Source of the DNA: Vulcanimicrobiota bacterium
GTDB lineage: Bacteria; Vulcanimicrobiota; Vulcanimicrobiia; Vulcanimicrobiales; Vulcanimicrobiaceae
Length of the DNA: 16,631 bases
Direction of reading: 5' to 3'
NCBI GenBank assembly: GCA_003135555.1
Contig: PLCF01000011.1
Location: forward strand, 1-16,631
Positions 1 through 16,338 of the stretch are shown here, piece after piece (position 1 is the stretch's first letter; the number at the start of each line of letters is the position of its first letter). Under the pieces are notes generated by a model that worked only from the letters and a program-made list of their open reading frames with translations, did not search any database and was not told the origin of the DNA. The translations under genes and the position numbers were made by a program.

Positions 1-11
1 AAACCGCGGGG

Positions 12-1178
12 TCACTTCACACCGTCTGAATCGCTAGCCGGCACCATCTTTCCATAGCGAGCGTCCATTCGTCGCGCTGCGTCGATGAACTCGGGAGGCG
101 TTACATCCGTGTAGACGTCTCCAGTGGTGGTCAGGGACGAATGCCCCATGGCGCGGGACGTCACAAGAAGCGTCACGCCGGCTGCTTGCATTAGATTACT
201 ATATGTGTGGCGCAGCCCATGAAACGACACCGCCGGCAACTTACGAGTGTGAACCAGGTGGTAGAACATCGACGATAGTGCATCCGGGCTCCAGTACCCG
301 CCGGTCTTCCAATCGGGGAAGAGCGCCTCGGGTACGCGGGCGATCCCGAAATGATCTTCCACCTCTCTGCGATGGCGTTGCAATTCGGCTAGCACGAATG
401 AGGGCAGCACCACGGGCCGTCTTGAGTGATTCGTCTTGGGCACCTTGAGCCGAAGCGACTTGTCGCGCGCCTCGTCGAGCGAACGGCTCACTGAAAGCAC
501 GCCGGACTGCAGGTCTAAGTCGCTCCACATCAGACCCAAGACCTCGCCGCGCCGTAAGCCTCCGAACGCGGCCACCATGGCGGGACAGTAGACGATCGTC
601 CCATGGAGCCCCGCGAACAGGCGTTGAATCGAGCTCGCCGAGAGGCCTTCGATCTTTTGCCCGCCTTTCGGTACCGATTCAACGAGGTCGCACGGATTGC
701 GTGCGAGCCATTGCGACCGAACGCCGAATCTGAGGACGACTCGCAGCGTCGAGTAGAGATGATGGACGGTCCGCTGTGAAAGCCGGCCTCGCTTTCGGTC
801 TCGCCGCGGCATCGTTGTCCACCTTGCCAGGGCTTCGTCGACGAGCTTCGGAGTGAGCCGCGACAGCCGCACCGGACCAAGCACCGGACGCAAGTGGTGG
901 TTAGCGATCGCCTCATAGCGCTCCAGCGTGGCTCGTTCGACGCGCTCGCGACGAGTCGAAAGCCACCGGTCCAAGAGATCTGAAACCGTCGCTGTACCAG
1001 GGTTGGCATACTCCCCGCGCAGCAAGTCGGCTTTGAAGCGATCGAGAGCGGCCTCAGCCTCTCGCTTCGTCCCTTTGATGGTGAGGCGCTTTTGGGTCCG
1101 GCGGCCGCTGAGCCCGGCCGGCAGCGTGATCCGGACAGTCCAGGAGTCCTTTCCACCCCGGACGAGCTTTGCTGACAA
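12..1178 (-). CDS. Tyrosine integrase, phage/ICE type (about 388 aa)
   Basis: Catalytic motifs GLRRGE (R), VPKT (K), FHGLRH (HxxR), MGHSS (H), DVY (Y); N-terminal arm-binding region KGTKREAE. Start reassigned from 1358 to TTG at 1178, which has a GGAGGG Shine-Dalgarno (rc of 1185-1190) and removes overlap with the XRE gene. Confidence 0.95.
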   Translation of the reverse strand: MSAKLVRGGKDSWTVRITLPAGLSGRRTQKRLTIKGTKREAEAALDRFKADLLRGEYANPGTATVSDLLDRWLSTRRERVERATLERYEAIANHHLRPVLGPVRLSRLTPKLVDEALARWTTMPRRDRKRGRLSQRTVHHLYSTLRVVLRFGVRSQWLARNPCDLVESVPKGGQKIEGLSASSIQRLFAGLHGTIVYCPAMVAAFGGLRRGEVLGLMWSDLDLQSGVLSVSRSLDEARDKSLRLKVPKTNHSRRPVVLPSFVLAELQRHRREVEDHFGIARVPEALFPDWKTGGYWSPDALSSMFYHLVHTRKLPAVSFHGLRHTYSNLMQAAGVTLLVTSRAMGHSSLTTTGDVYTDVTPPEFIDAARRMDARYGKMVPASDSDGVK

Positions 1179-1259
1179 TCGAGACCCTCCTATCGGTATA
1201 GACGGTAGTATACTTATTGGCACAAGGTAGCACGGCCTCCCACGGGACAACCCAACCTC

Positions 1260-1637
1260 GTGCCCAAACCCGTGGGTCAGCTCTTGCAGGCTGCGCGCCG
1301 GCGCGCGAAACTCACGCAGTCTCAGCTGGCCAAAAGCGCGGGCCTTGCCGCCAATCATCTCGCTCGGCTGGAGCGCGGCGACAAGGCGTACCCCCGATTC
1401 GACACAGTCGCCAAGATTGCGGCCCAGTTGGGGGTCTCGTTGGATTGGCTTGCCACGGAGTGCGGCCTGGTCAGCGGCCCTCGCCGGCCGCCTGCAGCGG
1501 CCCTACGGCGTGTCCTGACGGCCCTCACTGCCGGCGCCGAGCGAAATAAGCAGACCCAGGTCGAGCTCGCGGAGGCGGCGCAGGAGCTGCGCGCGGCGCT
1601 GGGGCTCGAGCCCGCCCGCCGACGGACCCGCCAGTAG
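1260..1637 (+). CDS. XRE/Cro-CI family HTH transcriptional regulator
   Basis: LQAARRRAKLTQSQLAKSAGLAANHLARLERG...PRFDTVAKIAAQLGVSLDWL is a typical HTH_3 pattern; divergent from the integrase. Confidence 0.92.
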   Translation: MPKPVGQLLQAARRRAKLTQSQLAKSAGLAANHLARLERGDKAYPRFDTVAKIAAQLGVSLDWLATECGLVSGPRRPPAAALRRVLTALTAGAERNKQTQVELAEAAQELRAALGLEPARRRTRQ

Positions 1638-1785
1638 TCAGAAACCGCGTGAGTGCTGCGGCGAGGACGTAGTCCCGACCGCCGATCCGCAGGCCCAGAG
1701 AGGTCATTACGTGGTCGACCTGGCGGCGGCCGAACCCGGTCCGGGCCGCGAGCTCCTTGCGGGACAGAAGCTGTTCTGGTTGCAT
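1525..1785 (-). CDS. Putative excisionase/AlpA-like HTH protein
   Basis: LLSRKELAARTGFGRRQV...LRIGGRDYV...LTRFL resembles Xis-type winged HTH. The low-complexity tail overlaps the XRE 3' end convergently by 113 bp. Confidence 0.55.
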   Translation of the reverse strand: MQPEQLLSRKELAARTGFGRRQVDHVMTSLGLRIGGRDYVLAAALTRFLTTGGSVGGRARAPAPRAAPAPPPRARPGSAYFARRRQ

Positions 1786-1872
1786 CGCGTATCCGATAGT
1801 CCTAGAGACAGCGGACGAGGTTCATGGTGTCCGCCTGGTGTTAGTACGGCCTAAGGTACGGGTGGCTATGGG

Positions 1873-2775
1873 ATGGCGCGAGAGCAAAAGCCAAAGAGTT
1901 TTGCGGGACGAGCTCGACCCGGGCTAAATCAGCCGTTCCACCCGGAACGATGGGCCCGCTGGCTGGAGCGCTGTCGATCGACGCTCGAGCTCTCGAAGCC
2001 TCAGTTCGTTCGAGCGATCCAAGAAGCAGCGGCGCCCCTTGTACCGCTGCCATCCCGTGGCCGAAACTGGGCGGTCACCGAGGTCTATCCCAAGACCGCT
2101 CGTGGAAGCACGCGTCGCGGGTGGCAAGCATACTGGATCGGCGAGGCGATCCGCGAAATTCAAAAAGAACGACTGTACTATTGGTTGTGGACGAGCGGGC
2201 TCGAGAGTCTGTCGTTCGGCGGCTACTTCGGCGATTTGATTGCAGTCATCGGGCTCACCGTCGGCGAGGAGGCCCTAACAGAGGACGTCCTGGAGGACGC
2301 ATTGACCGTCGCGAATCCCGCATCGGCGTGCATCATCGAGGTCCCCGGCATCGAAGGGCGAGCGACGACGAATGGGGCGTACGAGGAAATGCTCGACGAA
2401 TGGGACTTCTGCTTCCGCCTGCGCGACACCACGCCGTTTTCCGCGTCCCTTTCACGCTGGATGCGCAGCAGCCGCCAACTCATGCTTCCATGGGCGTTCG
2501 ATGCTGCGCGAGCCTGCGTAAGCAACGGAGACGAAGTTCACGCGCTGGAACTCCTCCGCTCCGCGGTCGTCATTAGATCGATCGAGCGCTTTGGCAACGC
2601 GCCCCCGGAATCGACGTGGCTACGTGGTCCCGGCCTCGCACTTCAGAGCAATCGCGCGTGGGGCATCGATGACTTCCACTCCGTCCACGTGCTGGGGCAG
2701 GCCCCGTATCGACCATCTCCCCGCCAGCACCTCCGCATCTTCGCCGAGTTCAAGCTCCCGGAACGAGAGGATTGA
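1873..2775 (+). CDS. Hypothetical protein (300 aa), possible N-terminal HTH
   Basis: Long ORF with protein-like composition; WLERCRSTLELSKPQFVRAI resembles the first helices of an XRE-like HTH (weak). Confidence 0.7.
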   Translation: MAREQKPKSFAGRARPGLNQPFHPERWARWLERCRSTLELSKPQFVRAIQEAAAPLVPLPSRGRNWAVTEVYPKTARGSTRRGWQAYWIGEAIREIQKERLYYWLWTSGLESLSFGGYFGDLIAVIGLTVGEEALTEDVLEDALTVANPASACIIEVPGIEGRATTNGAYEEMLDEWDFCFRLRDTTPFSASLSRWMRSSRQLMLPWAFDAARACVSNGDEVHALELLRSAVVIRSIERFGNAPPESTWLRGPGLALQSNRAWGIDDFHSVHVLGQAPYRPSPRQHLRIFAEFKLPERED

Positions 2776-2816
2776 GCGAATTGCCAAACACCGCTGGAAT
2801 CGCGAAAGGGCGGAGA

Positions 2817-2848
2817 TTGCGTTTAACAGACTTAGCTTGGCTTGATAC
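2817..2848 (+). repeat. 32-bp inverted repeat, left copy
   Basis: TTGCGTTTAACAGACTTAGCTTGGCTTGATAC matches the reverse complement of 4934-4965 at 31/32 positions. Confidence 0.97.
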
Positions 2849-2851
2849 CAT
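2823..2851 (+). promoter_or_regulatory. Sigma70-like promoter, probably leaderless transcript for the 2860 ORF
   Basis: TTAACA (2823-2828), 17-bp spacer ending in TGn, TACCAT (2846-2851); ATG 8 nt downstream with no Shine-Dalgarno. Confidence 0.6.
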
Positions 2852-2859
2852 TGTGAACT

Positions 2860-3870
2860 ATGGATGAAGCCTTTAGCGAGCAGTGCCACGCCGAGTTGTC
2901 GGCGTTGCGCGCGACCGACCTCATGGCCGCCGGGATCGCAACCGATCGGCACCTGTTCTACTGCTTGGACGATAACTGTGGAGCGCCGCTCCGGCTTGAC
3001 TCAACGGCGTCCTCCAAGAAGGCGCCGTACTTCATCAGCTGCGCAACGCCCGCGTGCCTGAAACGGCGCGGCCGTACACACGATCCCTCGAACACGCCAG
3101 TTCAATATCACCGTCCGGACTGCGAATACGTGTCCGGCGACACCGGAGGAAGTCAGCAGCACGCCTACTCGGTCTACCTGAGTGGTGACCTGACGTTGGA
3201 TCCCGGAGGTGAAAGCGCCCCTTCAAAGGCCGCAGCGCGTGGCTCAGGCAGTCCCGCGCCGCTCCGAACGCCGCGCGTCCCGATAAACGAACGGCTCAAG
3301 CTGCGATCGCTCGTCGACTACATGGTCGGCTGGAACTCGCGCACTATTGCAAGGGCGTCAATCGACCTGCAAGGGAAGCCCCGGCTCTTGCGGACACTTT
3401 TCGTGCCGGCGCATTGGCTTCCGGAATTTGACCTGCGGAATGGGCGCGTGCGCTGGCCAGAATGGGTTGGCAAGGTCCGCTACTTCGATGCTACAGCGTT
3501 CGCAGTGATCGCGTACGGCGAAGCCGAGCTCGTCGACGTGCGCGCTGACCTTCCGGCAATTCGCTTCATGCAGCCTGCTCTCCAGCGCCGAGGCGTTGCA
3601 GCTTCGCTCGACGAGAAATTGTACGAGCGTTCGGCGTTTCAGCGTCGTTTCGCGCGCGATCTGGCCGCGACGGGATGGGTCCGGGGCAAGACGGTCCGCG
3701 CGTACGCCTACGTGATGGGAACGGTCCGGATGGATGCAACCTACGTGCGAGTTGACCTGCTCACCACGTTTGAAAACGTGCGAATCTTTCCGATAGGCCA
3801 CGGTGCCGTCCCCGGGCTAGTTGCTGCGCACGAGCCCCTTGAGCTAACCCACGAGTTGAAGACGCTTTAG
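2860..3870 (+). CDS. Hypothetical protein (336 aa) with N-terminal Cys/His putative zinc-binding domain
   Basis: FYCLDDNC...PYF..C...C...H.PDC; layout loosely like the CoiA N-terminal zinc module. Confidence 0.75.
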   Translation: MDEAFSEQCHAELSALRATDLMAAGIATDRHLFYCLDDNCGAPLRLDSTASSKKAPYFISCATPACLKRRGRTHDPSNTPVQYHRPDCEYVSGDTGGSQQHAYSVYLSGDLTLDPGGESAPSKAAARGSGSPAPLRTPRVPINERLKLRSLVDYMVGWNSRTIARASIDLQGKPRLLRTLFVPAHWLPEFDLRNGRVRWPEWVGKVRYFDATAFAVIAYGEAELVDVRADLPAIRFMQPALQRRGVAASLDEKLYERSAFQRRFARDLAATGWVRGKTVRAYAYVMGTVRMDATYVRVDLLTTFENVRIFPIGHGAVPGLVAAHEPLELTHELKTL

Positions 3871-3881
3871 GAAAGCCCACC

Positions 3882-4397
3882 CTAGAGGATGTCGCCGCGC
3901 CGCCAAGACCAGACCAACGCCATCTCACCTAGCCGGATCGAACCCGCGAGGTCCGGATCGAGTAGTACGGCCACGAATCCGTGAATTGTCTCTATCACGA
4001 TGTAGCCGAGCAAATGGGATTGCCGGTAGACCGTTCCGCGGTCTAACCGTCCCTCCCCAAACATCGGATCGCCACTTTCCCTGCTCTTAACGAAGCCGCG
4101 CAGCGTCCCCGGCGGAAGCTCGTCGTCCCTCATTAGCCGGACGTCAAACTCCGCCTCGATGCACTCGCGCAAGTATTGACGACGCGCCGGCTCGTCGTTG
4201 ATCGCGGGAAGCGGCACCGGCGGACGGTCCATGAGTGCGTATAGCCTGTCTGAAGTCTTGGGCCGCGGGTGCAACAGGCTATGCACCTTGAACCGAGCTG
4301 AGAGCACCCATTCCCGGAGCAGCTGCCGAAGCGTCACACCGTCGGGGCAATCCACGTAGACGCCGGATTTCACCACCCGTATACCGAGCAGGTCCAC
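3882..4397 (-). CDS. Hypothetical protein (about 171 aa)
   Basis: In-frame GTG at 4397 lies 1 nt after the TAA of the upstream HTH gene, suggesting translational coupling. Confidence 0.65.
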   Translation of the reverse strand: MDLLGIRVVKSGVYVDCPDGVTLRQLLREWVLSARFKVHSLLHPRPKTSDRLYALMDRPPVPLPAINDEPARRQYLRECIEAEFDVRLMRDDELPPGTLRGFVKSRESGDPMFGEGRLDRGTVYRQSHLLGYIVIETIHGFVAVLLDPDLAGSIRLGEMALVWSWRRGDIL

Positions 4398-4398
4398 G

Positions 4399-4776
4399 TT
4401 AGCCGTCGTAGCCCAGGTCCGCAAACAGCGGCCGCGTCAGCACGAGCTTACGGCGCCCGATCGTCTTGACTCTGATCTGACCGTCATCCACCGCAGCGTA
4501 TGCCGTCGCCCGCGAGATACCCAACACAAAGGCGGCATCCTCTACGGTCATCGTCGGAAGCTGGCGGAGATCTTCGATGTATTGTCCGCGCTCTCGCGCG
4601 ACGCGTGCGTCCTTTCCGATCGCTCGTCTCCTTACGGCTCGAGGTTTGGTCGCCGCCGCCGGCAGCGCGCTCGATCGAGCCGCGCCCTTTGACGGTGTTC
4701 CGGTAGTGGCACTCTTCGCGGTGACCTCTGACCCGGCTGCAACCGAACGCGTACGAATTCGACCGTTAGCGACCAT
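4399..4776 (-). CDS. Excisionase-family (HTH_17-like) DNA-binding protein
   Basis: C-terminal TMTVEDAAFVLGISRATAYAAVDDGQIRVKTIGRRKLV is a classic excisionase/MerR-like HTH; basic Ala-rich N-terminal extension, start uncertain. Confidence 0.85.
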   Translation of the reverse strand: MVANGRIRTRSVAAGSEVTAKSATTGTPSKGAARSSALPAAATKPRAVRRRAIGKDARVARERGQYIEDLRQLPTMTVEDAAFVLGISRATAYAAVDDGQIRVKTIGRRKLVLTRPLFADLGYDG

Positions 4777-4787
4777 TTTCGACCGTT
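4758..4787. repeat. Three tandem 10-bp repeats over the HTH_17 start codon
   Basis: TTCGACCGTT / AGCGACCATT / TTCGACCGTT. Confidence 0.75.
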
Positions 4788-4831
4788 TGTGTCATCGCGT
4801 GATGTCCCGTCATCTTGAGTTTTGGCAAACA

Positions 4832-4861
4832 TTGACGCCCCGACACCGCGCCGGGTACAGT
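4832..4861 (+). promoter_or_regulatory. Candidate sigma70 promoter inside the IR-bounded segment, pointing toward the recombinase pair
   Basis: TTGACG, 18 bp, TACAGT. Confidence 0.45.
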
Positions 4862-4870
4862 CGGGTGCGA

Positions 4871-4896
4871 GTCGGCGGGCCGAGCGGTCTGCCGAC
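4871..4896 (+). other. 11-bp stem-loop
   Basis: GTCGGCGGGCC-GAGC-GGTCTGCCGAC with two G-U wobbles on the + strand; no U-tract. Confidence 0.6.
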
Positions 4897-4930
4897 GCCT
4901 CTCCCGTAGCACTGCGTCCAAAGTAGAACG

Positions 4931-4959
4931 AATGTATCAAGACAAGCTAAGTCTGTTAA
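4931..4959 (-). promoter_or_regulatory. Sigma70-like promoter within right IR, toward the HTH_17 operon
   Basis: Minus strand: TTAACA, 17-bp spacer ending in TGn, TACATT. Confidence 0.55.
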
Positions 4960-4965
4960 ACGCAA
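4934..4965 (-). repeat. 32-bp inverted repeat, right copy
   Basis: GTATCAAGACAAGCTAAGTCTGTTAAACGCAA is the reverse complement of 2817-2848 with one mismatch. Confidence 0.97.
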
Positions 4966-5168
4966 CAAGCCCGAGCGCCGAAAATAGCGCCATCGTGCGG
5001 CGTTCGGGGCAAACGGCCACGCTCGCCCACCGGCGCCGGCGCGCGCGCAACAGCGCGCTCGTGCGCGAGTTGTTGGGCGAGATCGACCTCCCTGCCGACA
5101 CCGGCGAGGCCGGCTACGCGCAGACCGCGGCGCATGGAATCGACGTCGTGGCGCTTTTTGCGGACCCC

Positions 5169-5197
5169 TTGCCAAGTGGGATAGTGTGTGATATACC
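5169..5197 (+). promoter_or_regulatory. Candidate promoter for recombinase pair
   Basis: TTGCCA, 17-bp spacer ending in TGn, TATACC, 40 nt upstream of ATG 5238. Confidence 0.45.
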
Positions 5198-5237
5198 CAG
5201 CGGCACGGGTTGCTCCCAGACACCCAAGGACGATCGA

Positions 5238-6218
5238 ATGAACGAGCTACCCGAAGCGCTCGTCGACGCGATCGACGCGGGATCATCCCAGTTGGGCCGC
5301 CTGAGTCCTCAGGTCGCCTACTATCTGCGGAACTCCCGCGCCCCGTCGACCCGAGCGCTTTATCGCTGGGCCTGGAACCGCGTCCTGCGCGCCTGTCGCG
5401 CCATGAGCCGCTGCCCCCTGCCCATGACCGAAGCCTGCGCCGCGATGGTGATCGTCGACGCCGTCAACGACGGCCTCGTGTTCGGCTCCATCCGCATCAT
5501 CGCCACGGTGATCTCGGTAGCGCACGAAATTGCCAAACAGCCCGATCCCACCAAGACCGAGGCGTTCCGCAGCGTCATCCGGGGCATCGGGCGCGCGCTC
5601 ACGCATCAGCAAGATCAGAAAGTGGCGCTCACGCCGGACGAGCTGCGGCTCATTCGGGACTCCTGCGCCGCTGATCCCAATCGCGCGCGCGGGACGCGCG
5701 ACTGGGCGCTGGTGTCGTTTGGCTTCGCCGGCGCCTTCCGACGCAGCGAGATCATCGCGCGCAACACCGCAGACTTGGAGTTCCTGGCTCAGGAACTGCG
5801 GGTCTATATCGATCGCAGCAAGACCGACCAGTTCGGTCGCGGCGCCTACATCACGATTCGCCCCGCGAACGATCCCAAGGTCTGTCCGATCGACGCGATG
5901 CGCTCATGGCTAGCGATCCTGCCGGGGCCGGGGCCACTCTTCCGGCGCGTCACTGCCCACAACACCGTCAACCCTGCGCGTCTGTCGGCCTACTCCGTGA
6001 CGAGCATCGTCAAGGGCTTCGGCGTCGTTCTCGAGCTACCCGAGGACCGGCTGGGCGCACACTCCTTGCGCGCCGGAATGATCACGGCCCTCATGGAGGC
6101 CGGCGTGTCCAACGTGCTCACGATGGATCACAGCCGGCATAAGTGCGACGATACGCTGCGGCGCTACTATCGGCCGCGACGCTCGGCCGTGAACTATACC
6201 GCGATGGCGGGACTGTAA
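5238..6218 (+). CDS. Cre-like tyrosine recombinase, catalytically intact (about 326 aa)
   Basis: RDWALVSFGFAGAFRRSE (R), RSKTDQFGRG (K), CPIDA, HSLRAG (HxxR), SRHK (H), LRRY (Y). Start reassigned from 4932 to ATG 5238 with AAGGA Shine-Dalgarno at 5226-5230. Confidence 0.93.
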   Translation: MNELPEALVDAIDAGSSQLGRLSPQVAYYLRNSRAPSTRALYRWAWNRVLRACRAMSRCPLPMTEACAAMVIVDAVNDGLVFGSIRIIATVISVAHEIAKQPDPTKTEAFRSVIRGIGRALTHQQDQKVALTPDELRLIRDSCAADPNRARGTRDWALVSFGFAGAFRRSEIIARNTADLEFLAQELRVYIDRSKTDQFGRGAYITIRPANDPKVCPIDAMRSWLAILPGPGPLFRRVTAHNTVNPARLSAYSVTSIVKGFGVVLELPEDRLGAHSLRAGMITALMEAGVSNVLTMDHSRHKCDDTLRRYYRPRRSAVNYTAMAGL

Positions 6219-7141
6219 TGGCACGCGTCGTCTGCCGGCCCGGCACGCTACCCGTCGCCCAACTCCCCGACGATGCGCGGGCGTTCGCGGAACTGCCGTA
6301 TGCGCCGTTCACCGAAGAGGCTCGGCAGTTCCACTTGCGGGCGTACGAACGATGGTGCGCGGGCCGCGCACGAGTGCCCTGGCCGACGAGCCTCCAGACG
6401 CTGCTCGAGTTCGCGGCCGACCGCGCTCCGGGCCGTTCGTACTACACGATTCGCGAGCACGTGCGCGTCGTCTCGATGGTCGAGCGCGCGCGCAGCGGGA
6501 TCGATCTGTATGCGCATTGCGCCATGCGCAAGGCACTCGAGGGCATCAAGCGGGACTGTCCGCCACGCCCAGTCGCGCCGCTGCGCCCGTCCCAAATCAG
6601 CCTGCTCTTCGCCTACCGCCCCAAGACAGCGGCGCACCAGGTGATCCGTACGATGGCCCTTCTTTCCTACGCGGCCGGCTTTACGCTATCGGAGCACCAC
6701 AAATTCCGCTGCGAGATGGTGACCTTAACTGACGAGGGGGCGACAATCGAAGGCTTGGGCGACGATCGGCCCCTGTTTCACATTGGCCCCGCGCAGGACG
6801 CTGAACGCTGTCCGGTTCGCGCGCTGCGCGCTACGATCGGTCGACGTTCGGACGGGTACGTGTACACCACCGTGCGATCCCGTCGCCTCGATAAGCACTT
6901 TAGCTATGACGGGCTGGGGCAGGAGCTCGCGCGATACGGAAGGGCAGCGGGAGTAACGCCGCTGAGCAACGACCGAATCCGGATCGCGGGCCTGGTCGAG
7001 CAAGCTCGAAACATCGACATCGTACGCCTGGCGCACTTCCACGGATATCGCTCGGTCAACACGCTCGCGGGATTGCTCGGTCGCTACATCGAGGTGAACG
7101 CCGCACTGCGGTGGAGCACTGCTCGTCGCGAGAAATGGTAA
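6218..7141 (+). CDS. Cre-like tyrosine recombinase paralog with degenerate active site (about 307 aa)
   Basis: TAATG stop/start overlap with the upstream gene; collinear similarity to it (APST/APFT, CPLP/VPWP, RGIGR/EGIKR, IRPANDPKVCPIDAMR/IGPAQDAERCPVRALR) but catalytic motifs altered. Confidence 0.85.
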   Translation: MARVVCRPGTLPVAQLPDDARAFAELPYAPFTEEARQFHLRAYERWCAGRARVPWPTSLQTLLEFAADRAPGRSYYTIREHVRVVSMVERARSGIDLYAHCAMRKALEGIKRDCPPRPVAPLRPSQISLLFAYRPKTAAHQVIRTMALLSYAAGFTLSEHHKFRCEMVTLTDEGATIEGLGDDRPLFHIGPAQDAERCPVRALRATIGRRSDGYVYTTVRSRRLDKHFSYDGLGQELARYGRAAGVTPLSNDRIRIAGLVEQARNIDIVRLAHFHGYRSVNTLAGLLGRYIEVNAALRWSTARREKW

Positions 7142-7309
7142 GTGGTTCCAAGCGGACCCACAGCGCAACGCAGCGTCGCGACGATGCGCTCGCGGCGGGC
7201 GGTCATGTCGAGTCCGGCAACGCATTGCCAACCAAAGCCAGCCCGTCCCCGCACATTGCCCGTCAGGTCGGGCGGCGGGATCTGAGCTTGTCGCCGGGCA
7301 CCAGGGCGC

Positions 7310-7490
7310 CGCCGAGAACGTGCGACGGTTGAGCGCCGCGAACCGCCGAGACCGCCAGACCCTGACACGTCCGCCGAGCAGAATGGAGCGCCTTAAGGTC
7401 ATCTGTTGTGCGGACGTGGCCTAGACGTCCCTGCGGCCGGGAAGCCCGGCCGTCGAGCGCGTGCGTAAGCGCTAGGCTTGCCCGCGCGCG
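7310..7490 (+). repeat. Diverged direct repeat, copy 1
   Basis: Three collinear blocks against 16095-16258: 32/39, 28/32 and 74/81 identities. Confidence 0.95.
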
Positions 7491-7616
7491 CCCCGCTTAC
7501 CAGAGGTCCTTCGCCGCAAGGAATCGCGGGCTTGGTCGGCCTACCGGTGCACGAGGACCCCCCAAGGTCTTGGCGGAGGGTCTTTCACCGTTTCGACGGG
7601 TAAGGACGGACGAGCA

Positions 7617-7895
7617 ATGAACGGGTTGGAGGTACCGCGCGTGGACGATTTGCCTTCACCGCGGGTCGAAGACGAGTTGGACGAGTTGCTCCTAGAGCTC
7701 GGTCTGCACTATGTCGGAGTCGGTCGCGACGCCGACGGCCAGCAGTACTTGCGGTTTCGCATCGACCGAGAAAAGAACGATCAGAGCGACGTGCCCGCCA
7801 TCGGCCAGCAGGCGGTTGCGCTTCTGAGCACGGCGCGCTCCGATGCGATTCGCAAGCTTTGGGAGAGTAGCCCAAAGGGTATTGTCGTCGAGTAA
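7617..7895 (+). CDS. Hypothetical protein (92 aa)
   Basis: TAAGGA upstream, acidic globular composition, 5 bp from next gene. Confidence 0.7.
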   Translation: MNGLEVPRVDDLPSPRVEDELDELLLELGLHYVGVGRDADGQQYLRFRIDREKNDQSDVPAIGQQAVALLSTARSDAIRKLWESSPKGIVVE

Positions 7896-7900
7896 CTCGC

Positions 7901-8665
7901 GTGAACGAAAAGGGTGAAATCCGGACGCGGAACATCGCATGGGCCGCGCTGGGACTCTTTATCGCCGTCGCCGGTCCGGGCGTCTGGTACTGGATTTCAA
8001 CGCAGGCACATTTTGCGAGATGCGTGTATGGTGACCCGACCTGCTCGCTTACCGTGTCGACGTATCTGCTCTGTGTCCTTACGCTGGGCGCGTTTCTCGC
8101 AGCCTATCGAGCCGCCCGATACGCCCAGCAGGCGATAGAGATCGAGCGCGAGGTTGTGGTTGCGATCGAGAACTGTTCCACGCTACGCGCGAGTCTCACA
8201 CCGGGTGGCGACGACGGAACGACGTCCCACCACAATCCTCATCGCACGGAAGAACGCTACATGAAGACCGTCAACAACGGTTTCCTAAGGGACCGCCCGG
8301 ACAACTATTCGCGTGATCAATACGGGATGGTCGAGTTCGACTGCATGAGTGTCGGTCGCTCTCCGGTCGTGAACGGCAGCATCCAGGTGAAATGCAAGGC
8401 ACCTAATGGCAATGAAAATGACCGCACCATCTCGATCGGAAGTATACCGACGGACGAGTTCATCCATTTGCGGCTTTGGCTGGACAACCGTTTGCGCGAC
8501 GTGGAGTTCACGTGGATCGAACGAAGCGTGAGGCACAAGGACGGCGTTGTGATAGAATTTCACGCTCGGCATAAGGACTTTGCCTTACCGGTTCCGTTCA
8601 GTGCCCTACCGGAGCCGGCACCGGCACCGGCGCCGCCGCCAGCCGGCCGGCTAATAGTCGAATGA
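7901..8665 (+). CDS. Membrane protein, two N-terminal TM helices plus beta-rich soluble domain
   Basis: IAWAALGLFIAVAGPGVWYWI and YLLCVLTLGAFLAAY hydrophobic segments; Pro/Ala-rich tail. Confidence 0.8.
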   Translation: MNEKGEIRTRNIAWAALGLFIAVAGPGVWYWISTQAHFARCVYGDPTCSLTVSTYLLCVLTLGAFLAAYRAARYAQQAIEIEREVVVAIENCSTLRASLTPGGDDGTTSHHNPHRTEERYMKTVNNGFLRDRPDNYSRDQYGMVEFDCMSVGRSPVVNGSIQVKCKAPNGNENDRTISIGSIPTDEFIHLRLWLDNRLRDVEFTWIERSVRHKDGVVIEFHARHKDFALPVPFSALPEPAPAPAPPPAGRLIVE

Positions 8666-8955
8666 CAACAGACGAGGGGCAGCGGCGGCGCTTTACCCCG
8701 ATCGCAATCTTCAAGCCCTGCGCCATTGTCATGTCTGGTGCGGTCGCGGCGATCATGATCGGAGCAGTCTACCTGGGCTTGTATTCGGACCCCTCGCATC
8801 CGACCGAAGACGAACGGAATCAGGCCCTCGATCGGTCGGCGCTGCTCTGCATCGTGGAACGCATAAACGACGCGGCCCGCCCTACCAAGGGCGGGCCGCA
8901 AAAGGAACCCAAGAATTGTGTCGTTTTTAGGTCGGTCCCCGCGCAGCAGCGATAA
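8662..8955 (+). CDS. Small single-TM hypothetical protein (97 aa)
   Basis: ATGA overlap with upstream gene; AIVMSGAVAAIMIGAVYLGLY hydrophobic segment. Confidence 0.6.
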   Translation: MTTDEGQRRRFTPIAIFKPCAIVMSGAVAAIMIGAVYLGLYSDPSHPTEDERNQALDRSALLCIVERINDAARPTKGGPQKEPKNCVVFRSVPAQQR

Positions 8956-9382
8956 GGCCGCCAAAGTATCGTTCGAGCGACTTATGGGTGATCTCCGACG
9001 TGCTTCTAATCCACGCAGGGATCCCCTGACGTGCTTCTAGCCAGGGCTCTTCGTTATGAGTTAACTGACTGAGCGCGGCACCATTGTAGTGCCGGTATAC
9101 CTCAAAGATATGGTCGACGAACGACTGTTGATCGGCGGATAAGTGCCAAGGATTTCCGCCCTCGATCGCGTTGATGCGATAGCGGTGGTGATACTTCTGC
9201 CAGAGCTCAGGAACAACAGGCCCGTTGACCCACGCTTCAATGCGTTCAGGAAACAACGCTCCTCTGCCATTTCCGAGGCTCCAACCCTGGCAGTAATAGA
9301 GAATCTTGTGGAGCTGCATCTGCTCGATCGTCCCGCCGGACTCCCGAAGCAAATGCGCTGCTGTATCAAATACGGATGCCAT
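8927..9382 (-). CDS. Panacea-domain antitoxin (DUF4065, SocA/GepA-like)
   Basis: QLHKILYYCQGW, LFPERIEAWVNGPVVPELW, LSQLTHNEEPW signature motifs; GAGG Shine-Dalgarno upstream. Confidence 0.93.
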   Translation of the reverse strand: MASVFDTAAHLLRESGGTIEQMQLHKILYYCQGWSLGNGRGALFPERIEAWVNGPVVPELWQKYHHRYRINAIEGGNPWHLSADQQSFVDHIFEVYRHYNGAALSQLTHNEEPWLEARQGIPAWIRSTSEITHKSLERYFGGLIAAARGPT

Positions 9383-9499
9383 CGTCTAGCCCTCGGCCGT
9401 TGTGTTACCGAGGTAACCTCTCACTACAATCATTGGTCGGAAGCAATGAGCGCTATGCACGACGGCTCGCGCCATGCCGAAAAGCCGCTCCGTCTAGAA

Positions 9500-10020
9500 C
9501 GCGCGCACTTGTCGTACTTTCCGCGATCACTGTCCGGTCTCACACCCATGTCCTTATCAACGAATTCGGCGCTAAGAACGTCTCTCGGCTCGGTCCGCCC
9601 ACTGAGCCCTGGCTGCCGCATGAACCCAACCCTTCTGGCGCATGCTCCGGCGTAGATGCGTCACCCGATCACGTGTCCGCGTCCGTCCGGGTCCGCCTTA
9701 TGTCTGTTTTCCCGCGAGCCGCCGTCTCACACCAGCCAGCGTCCCGCGGTAGTTTTCATGTCTCTCTGATCGGCAGATATCGGTCCCGGGTTTCGTATCC
9801 GCCGGATGGTGACCTGCCCCACGCGCGGCCTTTCGTCCCGCGGGCGAACAGCCTTTTGGACGGGTCGGCGAGCGCTGTTTTTCCGCGGCGCCAAGCCTCT
9901 CAATCGGCCTACCGGCAACCTTCCCGCACCGGCCACGGCGGCTCGGATTTTCCCAGGTTCCGCGGCGCCGGGCCGCTCCCGCCTACCTGGCAAGCCGTTG
10001 TCACGTCGACGCCATGGGCC
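9500..10020 (-). ncRNA. Candidate structured non-coding RNA (unassigned)
   Basis: No credible ORF; adjacent stems joined by A-rich linkers on the minus strand, several G-U wobbles favouring minus, internal repeats. Limits approximate. Confidence 0.3.
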
Positions 10021-10180
10021 CGGGGATTGGCGCGCCAGCACGCGGCCGCCTCCGTTCTCTTTCGCCGCCGCGATCGTCGGCGCTCCGAAATCAGCGGGCT
10101 CGAAAACGCGCACTGATTCGTCGAGTCGGAGGGAACTCTGCGCAGTCATTGACGGACCTCAAGCGACACCGCGATGCGCG

Positions 10181-11278
10181 TCATTGGTGTCGTTCTTGCT
10201 TGTCGATGTCGGCGACCATCCTATCGAAATCGCTTTGCGGCCAGCCGTCCGTGTAGAGCGCTTGCAGATCGGCCCGAACATCCGCAACTGCGTCGAACGC
10301 CATCTTCTTCAGGACGAGCGACGCGACTGAGGCCGACTCCTCTGCGACGACATCGACCGGGCGAAGAGCAGCGCCCACGCTAAAGTGCGCGATTGCGTTC
10401 CGATAGTCGGCGCGGAAGACGTCATCGATCAACTCGAGGTAGGTCTTCCCAACTGCGTTCATGGCGAGCGTCGCGTAGGGCTCCTCGTTCGGCAGTCGAC
10501 GATGCGCCTCGATCGGCAGTTTTCGCTCCCTCCGGACCTTGCGCAGCTTCCCGTCCATCAGCTCGTAGTAGTAGTGCGCTACGTTGTAATAGCAGAGAGC
10601 GCGGTAGAACGGGCTCTCGGTCCGGAGAGCTTCGACGATCAGACGGCCAAACGCGTCGACAACGCCCATATCTGCCCCGAACCCGAACGGCTCGTGCAGG
10701 CGAACCACCGGGTACGCGACGCGGAACGATACGAGTTGCGGGACACCCGAGACCTCCTCGACGACGAGGGCGTCCCAGCGCAAAGCGATGCCGGATGCTA
10801 CGGCGTACCGGATGATCAACCGCTCGAGCATCACGTGCACCATCTCGGCCGCATCGCGCACGGTCGCCGCGCCGAACGGCGACACCTCGAACCCGCCGAC
10901 TCTTCCGTGTTCGTTAAGGTGAGCCAGCCAATCGATCCGCGAGCCAGCGACCTCTATCCCAAATCGCGCATCCGCGGGCGCCACAACGTAGTTCGAATCA
11001 CCCTGGAGGACGTTGCCGATCGTCGCGTCGACAAGATCCATCGGGCGCGAAGCACCGTCAGCGGGCACGAGCCGGATCGCGGCACGGAACCGACCGACAG
11101 TCGCAAATAATTCGGGGTCACCGAAGAGCCGCGTCACCGCGTAGCCCCATTCGTATTTCTTAAATTCTTCGACGCCCGTTTCGCCGAAAGCAACCTCTCG
11201 CAGCAGCGGCGAGAACGGACGCTGGTCGGCCGCGTCCCCGTCGACTTCGGAACGTGGTAGCGTTGGTGACCTCGTCAC
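10181..11278 (-). CDS. HEPN-domain protein, MauJ-like (about 365 aa)
   Basis: EALRTESPFYRALCYYNV and RNAIAH (Rx4H). GTG at 11278 overlaps the upstream TGA (GTGA). Confidence 0.75.
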   Translation of the reverse strand: MTRSPTLPRSEVDGDAADQRPFSPLLREVAFGETGVEEFKKYEWGYAVTRLFGDPELFATVGRFRAAIRLVPADGASRPMDLVDATIGNVLQGDSNYVVAPADARFGIEVAGSRIDWLAHLNEHGRVGGFEVSPFGAATVRDAAEMVHVMLERLIIRYAVASGIALRWDALVVEEVSGVPQLVSFRVAYPVVRLHEPFGFGADMGVVDAFGRLIVEALRTESPFYRALCYYNVAHYYYELMDGKLRKVRRERKLPIEAHRRLPNEEPYATLAMNAVGKTYLELIDDVFRADYRNAIAHFSVGAALRPVDVVAEESASVASLVLKKMAFDAVADVRADLQALYTDGWPQSDFDRMVADIDKQERHQ

Positions 11279-12105
11279 GTCGGTGCGCCGCCCTTCCAAG
11301 CGGAACACGCCTTGCCACGCAGCGCCGAGCCGAGATCATTCGCGACGGTCAGAAGGGTTAGGAAAATGGTTAGGTTTCCCAGCGCCAACTGCTTGTCGAC
11401 ACGCTTAGCCCTACGGTGCGCGACATCGTCACGGTTCACTTTTACGATCGCGACCAGGCTATCCAGATAGGTCTGGACCTGATACCAAAGATCAGGGGGG
11501 AACTCGTCGTTGTGATAGTCAAGCGCGTTACGAAACGCGGTAAACCGTCGTTCCGTGCGTAGCCGCGTCTGCTCGAACGACTTTCGGAAGCTTTCAAGCC
11601 GATCTGGCGGCAAGTGTGCCATATAGGCGTCGTAAGTCCACTCCATCACCGCCTCGCCAGAAATCCCGAGCATAACGGTGCTACTGAGGTAACGCCGGTC
11701 TTGGAACGACTGATTCGCCTCGACGAGGTACTCTACTATGGTGTCGTCGGCGTCCGGCATGCGCCGCTTCGCATCCGCAATGTAGCCCTCCGCGTCGTGC
11801 GGAGTGACAGGGTTCTCCTTCGGATCGAGCACCTTTCGCCCGTAGGACGTGAGCGAGAAATAAGGGAAATGGCGCCTTGCTTCGTTCCCGAACCCGGGGC
11901 CCAGAGAGTTTCCGGGAACGATGATGCCGTCGGCGACCAGGGAGAACAGGACCGAATAGAAATCCGCGCTCATGTCCGTCATGGTGCCGCCCCAACCGGT
12001 CGAGATGCCGTTGCGCAGGACGTCGATGTTCAATGCGTCCGTGGTCATGCTCCGGAGCTCGCGGAGGTTGTCGAGAACGACTGCCTTCATTTCGTCAAAC
12101 GTCAC
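11275..12105 (-). CDS. Winged-HTH plus HEPN-like (DUF4145-like) protein (276 aa)
   Basis: LVADGIIVPG...FSLTSYGRKVL wHTH wing; YLVEANQSF...YLSSTVMLG...E helix pair; RDDVAH (Rx4H). Confidence 0.7.
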   Translation of the reverse strand: MTFDEMKAVVLDNLRELRSMTTDALNIDVLRNGISTGWGGTMTDMSADFYSVLFSLVADGIIVPGNSLGPGFGNEARRHFPYFSLTSYGRKVLDPKENPVTPHDAEGYIADAKRRMPDADDTIVEYLVEANQSFQDRRYLSSTVMLGISGEAVMEWTYDAYMAHLPPDRLESFRKSFEQTRLRTERRFTAFRNALDYHNDEFPPDLWYQVQTYLDSLVAIVKVNRDDVAHRRAKRVDKQLALGNLTIFLTLLTVANDLGSALRGKACSAWKGGAPT

Positions 12106-12601
12106 TTGTGCGTTTCCCTATCCTCGTTTGCGGCCAGCTCATCATTCCGGCGTGGGCCTGGCGACGCGGCAAGGGAACGAGGCCCGCCGATGGAAGGTCG
12201 CCATCCCCATGCGCGGAGGCCTAGCCGATGTTCGATGCACCGGGTCAATTTCAGCTGCACAACGTGTGGTGTTTGCGACGCTAATCCTGGCCCAGTTCGC
12301 GTCGAGCGCACCCGCCGGCGCACAGGAGCGGGGAGCATATGCCGTCCTGGAGATCCCAGATCTCAGCGATACCATGTTTAATACCGCTGAGCACGCCGCC
12401 CGACTTGACCAGAATCTGAGCCCGCATTCTCCCGATGAAATCTGCGAAACGACATCTTAGCAGCTATCTCTCGCCCGCTGAAGAAGATCGCGCGGCACGC
12501 GGCGTTCGGCTGCAAGGCGGTTTCGGTGTATGGCGGCTGAAAAGATAGGTAAAAATAATTCCTGATGGTAGTGCGCCCCGAACGGACGGCACGAAACATC
12601 G

Positions 12602-12616
12602 AAATATCTGATATTT
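12602..12616. promoter_or_regulatory. AT-rich perfect palindrome, candidate protein-binding site
   Basis: AAATATC-T-GATATTT in an AT-rich intergenic patch. Confidence 0.4.
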
Positions 12617-12663
12617 ATGCAATTTATCGCGCTGGTGACAAAAAAACTGCCGCGCTGCGTCGT

Positions 12664-13566
12664 CTACGGCTTTACGATCATCTCCGCGTCGTCGAGCGAC
12701 CCGAACAGCAGCCGGTCGAACTGACCGATATTGGCCGGCAACCGTGCGCGAATCGTGTTCATCGAAAGCGCCGCTGCCTGCATCCTGTCGTCCAGGGTGA
12801 GCGCGAGCCAGATAGATCGCCCCGGCGTGTACGTTTTGGCCATCTTGTCGCGCAGACGCTCGTCGAAATCGTCCGCGGATTCGTTCGGGTCGAATCCATG
12901 CGCGTCGATGTTCACGACTATCGCGGTGTAGCGGCCAACGGAGACTTCGTACTTCGCCCTGAGTCTGTTGAGGATCGGCGCGACGGCCGGGTCGGGCCCG
13001 AGAGGCGTGTTCTGCTTTACGGTCGCGAAGTCGGTGGCGTAGAAGACCGCCATGATTTCGTCCGGGATGGCGTGCGTCTCACGGCTGGTCGGGAATTTCG
13101 AGAAGAGGAAGTGCATGCGCCACCCTTGCAGCGCGGCGGCGTAGGTCGAGTCCGAGTCGTACCGCCGGCGCAACTCGGTGTTGATGGCCTCCATCGCGCT
13201 CCACGCCCGCGCCGAGGCTCGGCCCGTGACCTGAGAGACCTCGACGTAGATTTTCCGGCCTCCAGTGAGCGTCACGTGTAGGTCGGGCTCCGGTTCGACG
13301 CAGTTCTCGATGTCGATGATCTCAGCGTCCATGTCGGTCGCCACCGCCAGGTTCGCAAAGGCATACGCCTCGCAGAATTTCTTGGAGTCGTTGTCACGCA
13401 CGTAATCGCCGAATGGGCGCCCACGGTACGGGATCTCCATCAGCCGGTCGCATCGGTCTTTTTCCGCGGGGTCGCCCCCGACGTTTACAGCATGGATGGC
13501 GTCGTACTGTTCACGTAGGGTTCGCGGCTTCTGCATCATGCTGGGCCTCGTCTCGATCGGGAACAT
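12664..13566 (-). CDS. Putative PD-(D/E)xK-fold nuclease (up to 300 aa)
   Basis: E-containing helix followed by EPEPDLHVTLTGGRKIYVEVSQ (PD...ExS variant). Start may be the later Met-Met. Confidence 0.65.
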   Translation of the reverse strand: MFPIETRPSMMQKPRTLREQYDAIHAVNVGGDPAEKDRCDRLMEIPYRGRPFGDYVRDNDSKKFCEAYAFANLAVATDMDAEIIDIENCVEPEPDLHVTLTGGRKIYVEVSQVTGRASARAWSAMEAINTELRRRYDSDSTYAAALQGWRMHFLFSKFPTSRETHAIPDEIMAVFYATDFATVKQNTPLGPDPAVAPILNRLRAKYEVSVGRYTAIVVNIDAHGFDPNESADDFDERLRDKMAKTYTPGRSIWLALTLDDRMQAAALSMNTIRARLPANIGQFDRLLFGSLDDAEMIVKP

Positions 13567-13574
13567 CGTGGTAG

Positions 13575-13817
13575 GTGACCATGGACTCGGATCGTTTAGA
13601 TCGTAAGGCGGAAGGCACGCCCTCTTGTTGGCGCCGAGTGGTCGCGGGGCTCGTACTCAGCACGCTCCATGCGGCGGCACCGGAGCCTTACCATGTTCGC
13701 CTTGACTTTAAGGGCGCAAACAAAGAGCCAGTCCTATACTTCGACGAGGCGGACCTGGCCGCTAAGATAGCGCGGGTGATCTGCGAGTACTTTGACGACC
13801 CTGGTAACACGATGTGA
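13575..13817 (+). CDS. Possible small hypothetical protein or gene fragment
   Basis: C-terminal half looks protein-like, but the start is only 8 bp from the divergent gene start. Confidence 0.3.
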   Translation: MTMDSDRLDRKAEGTPSCWRRVVAGLVLSTLHAAAPEPYHVRLDFKGANKEPVLYFDEADLAAKIARVICEYFDDPGNTM

Positions 13818-13994
13818 GCGTGTGACCGCTAGAATGATCGTGTAATAGGGCGTCAGTGAGTTGGCTGTAGGTCCGTCAACGAAATCGCGAGGACTCCCCA
13901 ATCGCCGACATCGGACATCGAACGGGCGTTCGACGCGTCCCCGTGGCGGTCCCTGGCAGGCGCACCGGGCGACGAACGTGAACCCGCGCGCCCC

Positions 13995-14507
13995 ATGGGT
14001 GAAACGGACCTGGAAGCCTTACTCCGCGAGGCCGGCGCGACCCGCGAAGAACTCACGAGCGACGCGCGCGCGCACGCGCTAGATCTCGCGGGAACGATCC
14101 ACGACGAGATTGGTCGCTTGCACGACAAGCTCAACGCAAGGCGATCGGGAATCGAACTGGTCTCGCGGGACCCGGTTGCGATGGCGGACGAGATCGAGCA
14201 TCTTCTACGTGACCTTCTCTCGCAGCTTGAGACGCCCTTGGTGCTCGAAGACACGACGATAGAGCAGATCACTATCGACAACATTCACCCTACCAGCGTG
14301 GCGCCGTTTCTGACCATCGCTGCGCGCGCTCAGCGCGGCGCCCGTGGTGAAACGTCGCCCACAGGTCGCTCCTCGACGTGCGCTGCACTCAACATAGCGT
14401 TGAACCGGGTGGGCCGCTACGTCAGAGGAGTCGCGAAAATCCTCGGACGGCCGATCGACGACGAGCACCCCGCCCCCACCCCATCGTCGCGCGAGAGCGA
14501 CCAGTGA
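13995..14507 (+). CDS. Hypothetical helical protein (170 aa)
   Basis: Acidic, Leu-rich helical composition; stop overlaps the next GTG start. Frame is open further upstream to 13860. Confidence 0.65.
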   Translation: MGETDLEALLREAGATREELTSDARAHALDLAGTIHDEIGRLHDKLNARRSGIELVSRDPVAMADEIEHLLRDLLSQLETPLVLEDTTIEQITIDNIHPTSVAPFLTIAARAQRGARGETSPTGRSSTCAALNIALNRVGRYVRGVAKILGRPIDDEHPAPTPSSRESDQ

Positions 14508-15901: not shown

Positions 15902-16094
15902 GAGTATCTCAACACTGCCGGAGTCGTTCGATGACAAAGAAGCCCAAGCCCTGGCAACTGTTTTCGGCTCTCTTCACCTTCACACTTGCGCTCGTGATTG
16001 GCGGCGACTTCGTTGAGAGTTAGGTCGTATCTAATAACCTTCGCTAGCCGCCGTTAGACATCAGTCCTGGGGTGACCGTGCTGTACCAGCTCCT

Positions 16095-16258: not shown

Positions 16259-16309
16259 TTGTTCAATGAGCGGTGCGTCATGGCTGCCTGCGCTGTTGTT
16301 GTCCAATGG

Positions 16310-16338
16310 TTGAGGTGATACCGCGGACGCTGTATAAT
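16310..16338 (+). promoter_or_regulatory. Sigma70 promoter
   Basis: TTGAGG, 17 bp, TATAAT; ATG at 16348 with no Shine-Dalgarno (near leaderless). Confidence 0.65.

Follow-up and report, generated by a model that had tools for sequence, protein, structure and literature searches.

In invertons such as the fim-type switches, the shufflons and the hsdS switches, a short inverted repeat flanks a segment beside a tyrosine recombinase gene, and in Xer/dif-type modules (XerS/difSL, XerH/difH, XerA/dif) the recombinase gene directly adjoins a conserved site of about 30 bp. In integrons, the cargo promoter Pc sits within intI1 and faces PintI1, the two starts being 100 bp apart (PMC8876359, section 2.6.2). 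The SE (IntA-Tfp-IntB-Srap) and GInt (GinA-D) elements possess partners of recombinase fold that are non-catalytic, namely Tfp and GinC, and in elements of this type a promoter-bearing end region by the first recombinase gene is essential, according to the passages of PMC10214605 that deal with them. Here we analyze a near-perfect inverted repeat of 32 nucleotides beside a pair of adjacent recombinase genes (recombinases 1 and 2, or Rec1 and Rec2) in a stretch of 16,631 nucleotides, hereafter the window, from an uncultured Vulcanimicrobiota bacterium (assembly GCA_003135555.1, contig PLCF01000011.1, positions 1 to 16,631). To the explanation that this repeat is a duplicated promoter/operator, which would co-regulate two convergent cargo units and face the promoter of the recombinases, we give a slightly better than even chance.

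The two arms of the repeat, at 2817-2848 (IR-L) and 4934-4965 (IR-R), are 97% complementary (31/32) and have 2085 nucleotides between them. As had been noticed in a sequence-only reading of this DNA, the pair is genuine: among the 101 inverted pairs reported in the window it is the best by far, the runners-up reaching 74% over 34 nucleotides or 86% over 21 nucleotides. Its 23-nucleotide core occurs twice in the window at up to three mismatches, two or more matches being obtained in none of 200 dinucleotide shuffles, and no further copy of the core is present in the whole genome of 98 contigs and 3.57 Mb. Likewise, the first 40 kb of the contig hold no other partial copy of at least 16/20, a threshold which weaker repeats would escape, and no repeat family that could represent attC-type cassette sites is found around the module besides this single pair. 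The one mismatch between the copies is located centrally. A transposon-like arrangement of terminal repeats and a duplicated target site was considered and ruled out: the outer flanks of the two copies share nothing, and no target-site-like direct repeats were found in them. Enclosed by the repeat are ORF336, an open reading frame (ORF) that we regard as a cargo gene (2860-3870, plus strand), ORF180 (3882-4424 in ORF coordinates, minus strand), and a gene for an excisionase-type DNA-binding protein of 125 amino acids with an HTH_17 domain, a variety of the helix-turn-helix (HTH), at 4399-4776 on the minus strand and thus divergent from recombinase 1.

What does the repeated sequence look like in itself? 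In a consensus scan of positions 2500-5400, three promoter-like sites were found as compared to 0.3 +/- 0.6 in shuffled sequences, and two of them are the copies of the repeat. On the plus strand, IR-L offers a -35 element TTAACA (2823-2828), a 17-nucleotide spacer and a TG-extended -10 element TACCAT (2846-2851); on the minus strand, IR-R offers the same -35 element (TTAACA, 4959-4954), again with a spacer of 17 nucleotides, and a TG-extended -10 element TACATT (4936-4931). The sigma-70 score is 9/12 in both, as it is in the copy of a related locus, L032. Both copies point inward, IR-L to ORF336 and IR-R to the HTH_17-ORF180 operon. The -10 element of IR-L ends 8 nucleotides ahead of the ATG of ORF336, IR-L itself lying about 12 bases before this gene, and an ORF336 mRNA started there would be nearly leaderless; ORF336 has no Shine-Dalgarno sequence and no promoter-like site other than IR-L. 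For IR-R, the leader to the HTH_17 gene amounts to about 148 nucleotides, and the distance between the motif and the start of the HTH gene is similar in all three loci compared (about 148, 174 and 138 nucleotides in the window, L032 and a second relative, L035). In L032, the motif is the sole promoter-like site in 2.9 kb, where 0.4 would be expected, and it points at the HTH_17-type gene. The consensus is meaningful in the source organism, in which it occurs in 4 of 55 regions upstream of tRNA genes versus 12 of 3000 random windows of 150 nucleotides. Also present in the scan, in agreement with the sequence-only reading, is a promoter-like site at 4832-4861 on the plus strand (TTGACG, 18 nucleotides, TACAGT), which faces recombinase 1. 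This site and IR-R stand face to face, their predicted starts being about 56 nucleotides apart; it is loosely conserved in the alignment of relatives, and promoter scans of L032 and L035 did not flag an equivalent.

The right copy is at the same time part of a gene. The two copies had been taken to be intergenic, with the right one about 270 bp upstream of recombinase 1, a view that is correct for IR-L, which occupies the gap between ORF300, with its stop codon at 2775, and ORF336, with its ATG at 2860, but not for IR-R, which lies inside the open frame of recombinase 1 (4932-6218, plus strand, 428 amino acids in its long form) and makes up its first 11 codons. The ATG of this frame, at 4932-4934, shares its G with the first position of the repeat. 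Read on the plus strand, IR-R supplies codons 2-11 after this ATG; the resulting MYQDKLSLLNA continues in phase into recombinase 1, which is classed as a tyrosine recombinase by its matches to Pfam PF00589 (E=1.3e-6) and to the PHROG integrase family (E=5.9e-13). The frame is open from the ATG of the motif in the relatives as well, for 519 codons in L032 and 450 in L035. The linkers from the motif to an internal methionine measure 273, 546 and 339 nucleotides in the three loci, all of them multiples of three, and contain no stop codon in the frame of recombinase 1 and one to five in the other frames; the chance of an open linker is 0.125, 0.0096 and 0.059, respectively. In an alignment of 20 Rec1 homologues, which are 41-86% identical to the window protein, the N-terminal MYQ... 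is found at or near the start in 12, is diverged in 4 and is absent from 4, the latter all deriving from contigs of at most 3.7 kb. Across 16 homologues, the best-kept N-terminal residues are M1, Y2, Q3, L9 and N10, the spacer codons varying more; in our reading, the codons for M1, Y2 and Q3 would correspond to the extended -10 element of the opposite strand, and those for L9 and N10 to its -35 element.

The relatives were obtained by scanning metagenome contigs with the Rec2-family alignment, which yielded four distinct loci with a recombinase pair, L032 (equal to L033 and L034), L035, L036 and L037; three loci with matches of 24 residues (L038-L040) were set aside, and L031, from the scan of genome contigs, was discarded as a spurious match of 52 amino acids. 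Two of the four, L036 and L037, end short of the motif position upstream, and L035 extends only 0.5 kb leftward from the motif. The motif is found once in L032 (8447-8478, 30/32) and once in L035 (545-576, 26/32), both times at the place and in the orientation of IR-R, between an HTH_17-type gene and recombinase 1. A check suggested in the sequence-only reading has thus come out positive, the motif recurring beside homologous recombinase pairs in two independent loci with flanking genes that are about 70% identical. Between the window and L032, a conserved island of 42 nucleotides (4928-4969 in the window) is identical at 39 positions by blastn, at 70.6% identity for Rec1-Rec2, and the 180 bases following the island, up to a second island within Rec1 (box 2), are unalignable. 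An island so well preserved amid DNA that is about 70% identical or unalignable supports the view that motif and recombinase module are functionally connected, and it suggests a strong constraint at the DNA level. In neither L032 nor L035 is there a second copy, the reverse orientation included, at up to 10 substitutions, and L032, with 20.9 kb of which 8 kb lie to the left and 12 kb to the right of the motif, holds no partial copy of at least 16/20. What the window possesses in addition to L032 is IR-L, ORF336 and ORF180, placed between ORF300 and the HTH gene; ORF300 (1873-2775, plus strand), the left neighbor of IR-L, shows weak similarity to the immediate neighbor of the HTH_17 gene in L032 (E=0.002 and 0.056, in collinear pieces). 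IR-L matches L032 over 2819-2855 (34/37), including an inner flank, TTGTG, that is absent from IR-R. A search of 40 relatives for close kinship at the DNA level returned only chance-level matches of 32-67 nucleotides.

These observations would be accommodated best if the repeat consisted of two copies of a compact promoter of the sigma-70 type, the spacer of which would probably contain an operator, and not of crossover sites. IR-R would then be the resident copy, in a conserved module in which the HTH gene is read leftward from the motif and recombinase 1, followed by a degenerate recombinase 2, is read rightward. It would be put to double use, as the promoter of the HTH_17-ORF180 operon on the minus strand and as the start of the long form of recombinase 1 on the plus strand. 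As the IR-R and 4832-4861 promoters stand face to face, expression of the excisionase-like operon and expression of the recombinases should interfere with each other, like that from Pc and PintI1 in class 1 integrons. IR-L, in turn, would be a second copy, confined to this locus and placed before the cargo gene ORF336, such that ORF336 and HTH_17-ORF180 would be fired from identical promoters, converging on one another, under one regulator. ORF336 and ORF180 are convergent, with 11 nucleotides between their stop codons and no terminator-like hairpin there, and firing of both motif copies would necessarily produce transcripts that overlap in antisense. That the promoters fire and interfere is inferred, as are the origin of the second copy and the regulator, which could be HTH_17, XRE or the recombinases; among the proteins named, the XRE-family HTH regulator encoded at 1260-1637 on the plus strand, which is syntenic in L032 at 47% identity, is a candidate trans-acting regulator of the module. 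If this reading is true, it illustrates how densely regulation can be packed into a short sequence of a mobile-element module: 32 bases would begin a recombinase protein when read on one strand and drive an excisionase-like operon when read on the other, and a copied promoter would have been reused to control a newly acquired cargo gene.

The orientation of the segment was followed in public data. Six runs were listed, none of them an RNA run; four, all peat metagenomes (X1-X4; three samples of one study, one possibly the source), contain 87-97% of the sampled words. They were used as Logan contigs, which can miss rare variants, and were compared with positions 1200-7400. In each of the four, a single contig spans 1200 to 4954 or 4981 in the order of the window, unbroken through IR-L, and unitigs pass IR-L without a branch at a depth of up to 152 (X4). 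Among the joints of these contigs there are skips only and none with a change of strand, although a rare inverted form could escape; the contigs speak against an abundant one. The X3/X4 contig, of 27-33 kb, confirms the architecture of a repeat-bounded segment followed by the recombinase pair. It has 2 differences from the window over 1200-4981, then 182 letters that replace 158, and beyond this junction a Rec1 with 126 differences in 1089 nucleotides and a recombinase 2 that is more diverged still. In X1, the unitig for 4925-4977, 53 nucleotides long, has a depth of 47.3 as compared to 20.3 for its left neighbor, and its right continuations have depths of 15.9 and 23.6; therefore, the 53 shared bases have at least two left and at least two right contexts in this community. 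None of the Logan contigs crosses the motif into the right arm found in the window, for which reason the window's join across 4925-4977 could be an assembly chimera.

Recombinase 1 is followed by recombinase 2 (6218-7141, plus strand, 307 amino acids), the start of which overlaps the stop of recombinase 1 by one base. It has no match in Pfam, NCBIfam or PHROG and belongs to a family of 18 proteins that are 51-100% identical. Compared by hhalign, Rec2 and the Rec1 family match with 99.6% probability (E=2.9e-24), where pairwise BLASTP aligns a 17-residue piece only. The Rec2 profile matches the XerC-like chain 4a8e (E=4.2e-4), with Thr at the position of Arg I, Asp at that of His II, and Arg II kept; Arg occurs at the Arg I position in 2 of the 18 family members, and in 4 of them His replaces the last Tyr. 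Rec2 appears, judging from these substitutions, to be a true but catalytically degenerate paralogue of tyrosine-recombinase fold. Two catalytically competent paralogues, with RHRY in both, were not found, Rec2 lacking the full set, and the proposal of a two-subunit recombinase survives in an altered form only. In 400 other genomes of the phylum, the search with Rec2 retrieved only ordinary single recombinases of 24-32% identity that match Rec1 better; none of 43 other species of the genus gave a match, viral contigs held neither a relative of Rec2 nor an exact copy of the motif, and plasmids held no relative of Rec2. The pair represents a small, undescribed family, so far from soil and peat metagenomes only. 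A broken Rec2 fragment with one TAA stop, 55-58% identical over about 100 amino acids, lies on another contig of the same genome (C56, 97812-98132) and may be the relic of a second element.

Several points weigh against the promoter explanation. Two inverted, near-identical sites by a recombinase pair are the classic anatomy of an inverton, and the promoters are consensus matches only, the L035 copy falling below the threshold of the scan with 4/6 and 4/6 by count. The 8 nucleotides from the left -10 element to the ATG of ORF336 are slightly long for a strictly leaderless start, and the leaderless signal of the genome is weak, with a TANNNT peak at -12 of 0.79% against a background of about 0.27% in a crude set of ORFs. 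Moreover, the identity between the copies extends to the spacer and to the 6 bases that precede the -35 element, with near-identity in L032; a promoter alone does not explain this, and an additional binding protein or a coding constraint must be invoked; the latter cannot apply to IR-L. Finally, a sharp mosaic junction lies 16 nucleotides from the motif, and an exchange at a recombination site would leave such a junction too. The identity of the IR-L spacer and the position of the junction are what the promoter account does not explain well.

How do other explanations fare on these points? The motif could also be a recombinase target, because the mosaic junction is only 16 bases away, and one alternative holds it to be the DNA target of Rec1/Rec2, comparable to res, IRS, dif or attI, that also carries a promoter. 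Normally, there would be one such site per element, serving resolution, integration or the exchange of modules between co-resident elements, and the second, inverted copy would be the product of such an event, allowing occasional inversion and not regular switching. In Tn3-type elements, the recombination site indeed overlaps the promoter region of the recombinase. The same is described for SE-type elements in PMC10214605. The motif is kept beside the recombinase pair in the three of three loci that reach far enough upstream, the island, spacer included, is far more conserved than its surroundings, and the junction brings two left and two right contexts together in one community; in addition, the resemblance of the inner flank of IR-L to L032 (34/37) suggests an origin from another member of the family and not from IR-R. 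However, an insertion at such a site yields direct and not inverted repeats, the junction could equally mark where homologous recombination stopped, in the final stretch of shared sequence ahead of a hypervariable linker, and Rec2 looks catalytically dead, making the pair unlike XerC/D. Nor are recognizable paired arms present: the best 11-nucleotide dyad in the island agrees at 6/11 positions, which is equalled in 1356 of 2000 shuffles, and inverted arms around a short center, as in the core of an inverton or in a 28-31 bp Xer/dif site, were not found in the 42 nucleotides. The dif-like dyad of the sequence-only reading dissolves in the same way, as its proposed arms agree at 3/10 positions and the best dyad is at chance level. 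The lack of a dyad is moderate evidence only; a heteromeric site could be asymmetric. On the whole, we consider a recombinase target unlikely. Regular inversion is more doubtful again. Here, the 2.15 kb segment with ORF336, ORF180, the HTH_17 gene and the 4832-4861 promoter would flip under Rec1/Rec2 between the two copies as crossover sites, uncoupling the recombinases from their promoter and start codon. A 31/32 inverted repeat that directly adjoins a tyrosine recombinase pair, and a motif linked to the recombinase family, would fit, and inversion would turn the ATG of Rec1 into TGG and remove the 4832-4861 promoter, a plausible off switch. Yet only one orientation is seen in the contigs of the four runs, with no branch at depth 152, the relatives have a single copy, no dyad is present, the one-base difference sits mid-repeat, and both copies are explained as inward promoters. 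The crossover sites originally proposed are not supported by these findings. A duplicated promoter had itself been named beforehand as the outcome that would contradict inversion, and both copies do read as promoters facing the genes of the segment.

It is less probable than either that IR-L is functionless, a scar left when a rearrangement placed ORF336 and ORF180 beside the HTH gene, and that its 31/32 identity persists solely on account of its youth. Its restriction to this locus would agree with this, as would the X3/X4 variant, which with 2 differences over 1200-4981 is of one lineage, and the rarity of ORF336 (one distant match in 400 other genomes of the phylum); but a scar would hardly cover exactly the span from -35 to -10, in workable distance and orientation before an open reading frame that has no other promoter-like site or Shine-Dalgarno sequence. 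An effect at the level of RNA, in which read-through from ORF300 carries IR-L and blocks the translation of Rec1 in trans, strikes us as very improbable. The complementarity of 31/32 extends over the first 32 nucleotides of the Rec1 coding region, start codon included, and the fold of the Rec1 5' region is not special (z = -0.56), leaving it otherwise unstructured; against this, the relatives are without a second copy, so that the conservation of the motif is left unexplained, and no Rfam match was obtained at E of 0.1 or below. One may also combine the roles. The island would then provide the first codons of the recombinase frame, promote outward transcription of cargo, and serve in crossover by a heteromer of a catalytic Rec1 and a non-catalytic Rec2, with the 2.15 kb segment invertible, and single copies on different elements would allow the exchange of left and right arms; this would explain one left arm joined to two recombinase pairs about 12% apart in one peat community. 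If true, such a triple role would make the locus a platform for gene shuffling in the manner of an integron, the promoter being carried along within the recombination site; we deem it no more probable than regular inversion.

Apart from its first codons, recombinase 1 has several features of its own. Its N-terminal extension is composed of the conserved 11-residue start, a linker of about 10 to 100 amino acids that is hypervariable in length and sequence, and a conserved basic stretch (RRRxxNxxLxRxL) followed by box 2. Besides the long form, recombinase 1 may have a short isoform, given that the internal methionine at 5238, Met103, is invariant in the 20 aligned sequences and is preceded by a Shine-Dalgarno-like sequence in four loci, in the window AAGGA; it would give a core of 326 amino acids. 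Box 2, an AT-rich conserved island at 5169-5200 on the plus strand (TTGCCAAG...TATACC), encodes PLPSGxxCxIPxGTG with the rare codons TTG, CCA and ATA fixed. It is conserved in four loci, in which neighboring codons vary at synonymous positions, and contains a loose GGTAT/ATACC palindrome; the residues L80, I88 and P89 are invariant in the Rec1 alignment. With these properties, box 2 looks like a DNA site overlaid on coding sequence and may be an internal promoter or operator. A repeated att-like site was also considered for it and ruled out, as box 2 is single-copy in the genome. At 50% clustering, the Rec1 family has four full-length representatives only, further matches being ordinary recombinases that align only from about residue 100-138. 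A database protein of 749 amino acids, P0028, joins recombinase 1 to recombinase 2 via a frame shift just before the catalytic Tyr of recombinase 1; the alternative frame it uses is also open in the window (6143-6217), and a frameshift in that copy or an error of assembly is a more probable origin than a true fusion.

The assignment of the HTH gene is based on Pfam HTH_17 (E=5.8e-7, 30.1 bits at a cut-off of 27) and on the excisionase domain TIGR01764, which at E=2.7e-6 and 27.6 bits is just below its cut-off of 28.8. A homologue with 51% identity is found at the matching place in L035, and an HTH_17-like gene in L032, where it stays under the cut-off with 24.2 bits. The likely start of ORF180, a GTG at 4397-4395, is one base past the TAA stop of the HTH gene, and ORF180 would therefore likely be translationally coupled to it; the Atlas entry of ORF180 corresponds to the form that starts at residue 10. 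Neither ORF336, ORF180 nor ORF300, all without an assigned function, has a match in Pfam, NCBIfam, PHROGs or PADLOC. ORF336, which has a Cys-rich N-terminus, falls into unnamed Atlas clusters of proteins of 315-341 amino acids from Bacillota and Pseudomonadota (language-model features, score 0.97), with weak structural leads only, to DUF1173/nuclease-like and OB-fold proteins.

Concerning its genomic setting, the window represents the first 16.6 kb of a 65.7 kb contig and has a G+C content of 62.2%, as compared to 67.9% in the genome. A stretch of low G+C content (about 58-66% versus 68% in the genome) extends from position 1 of the contig to about 29 kb and ends at tRNA-Glu and tRNA-Gln genes (28828-28976); therefore, the locus sits in a genomic island. 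Two genes of the island have paralogues, 60-63% identical, on the contigs C97 and C33. A third tyrosine recombinase, a classical phage-type integrase of 448 amino acids, is encoded at the contig end (12-1358, minus strand) and has a counterpart of 28% identity at the matching relative position in L032. Downstream of the pair, a gene around 8927-9382 with a SocA/Panacea-type antitoxin domain (E=1e-16) overlaps its neighbors at both ends, and PADLOC returned no model matches among 12 ORFs, of which nine lie in 7901-15901 and three in or beside the segment between the inverted copies. About 160 bp past the stop of recombinase 2 begins a direct repeat of some 190 bp (7300-7490 and 16085-16258, 78-91% identical) that bounds a block of 8.8 kb; it has two copies only in the genome and no Rfam match, and could represent either a pair of the attL/attR kind or an intergenic element that was duplicated. 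A tblastx comparison of the region downstream of Rec2 was set aside, the signal being too noisy in GC-rich DNA.

What, then, sets this locus apart from the systems described? In full-text searches of the literature, supplements excluded, we found no account of this recombinase pair and none of a promoter that coincides with a recombinase start and is duplicated in inverted orientation. With invertons, the locus has in common that inverted repeats flank a segment next to a tyrosine recombinase gene, but one orientation is seen, the motif is unpaired in relatives and has no dyad, and the repeat is itself promoter-like. A near-perfect inverted repeat beside a recombinase gene hence need not be an inverton, and the promoter content of each strand, the copy number in relatives and the overlap with coding sequence are checks that separate the two readings. 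From the Xer/dif-type modules it differs in that the motif is without paired arms around a center of 6-8 bp, that Rec2 lacks Arg I and His II, and that the module resides in a low-GC island and not at the replication terminus.

The SE, GInt, Tn554 (TnpA-B-C) and RIT elements, as far as their descriptions permit a comparison, likewise have adjacent, translationally coupled recombinases and a small auxiliary protein, and in them one recombinase keeps the fold without the catalytic residues, as Rec2 appears to do. Here, however, the operon contains one catalytic recombinase, the third recombinase lying 4 kb away on the other strand; the small protein is the product of a divergently transcribed HTH_17 gene; the recombinases are located outside the repeat-bounded segment, with no terminal imperfect repeats enclosing them; and the host belongs to an uncultured peat lineage and not to the Proteobacteria. 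Rec2, moreover, has 307 amino acids, as opposed to at least 550 for the Tfp matches used in PMC10214605. The finding exposes a family of recombinase pairs in which a catalytic enzyme with a family-specific N-terminal extension is joined by a degenerate partner.

In its regulation, the locus would resemble the class 1 and class 3 integrons, in which an outward promoter in the 5' part of the tyrosine recombinase gene also faces the gene's own promoter, and in which the expression of cargo and recombinase is coupled by convergent transcription, here from predicted starts about 56 bp apart. Unlike an integron, the module is without attC-type sites, the cargo adjacent to the promoter is an excisionase-like gene, and the recombinase has a degenerate partner. 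In addition, the promoter would overlap the very first codons of the recombinase, and a second copy of it would drive another gene.

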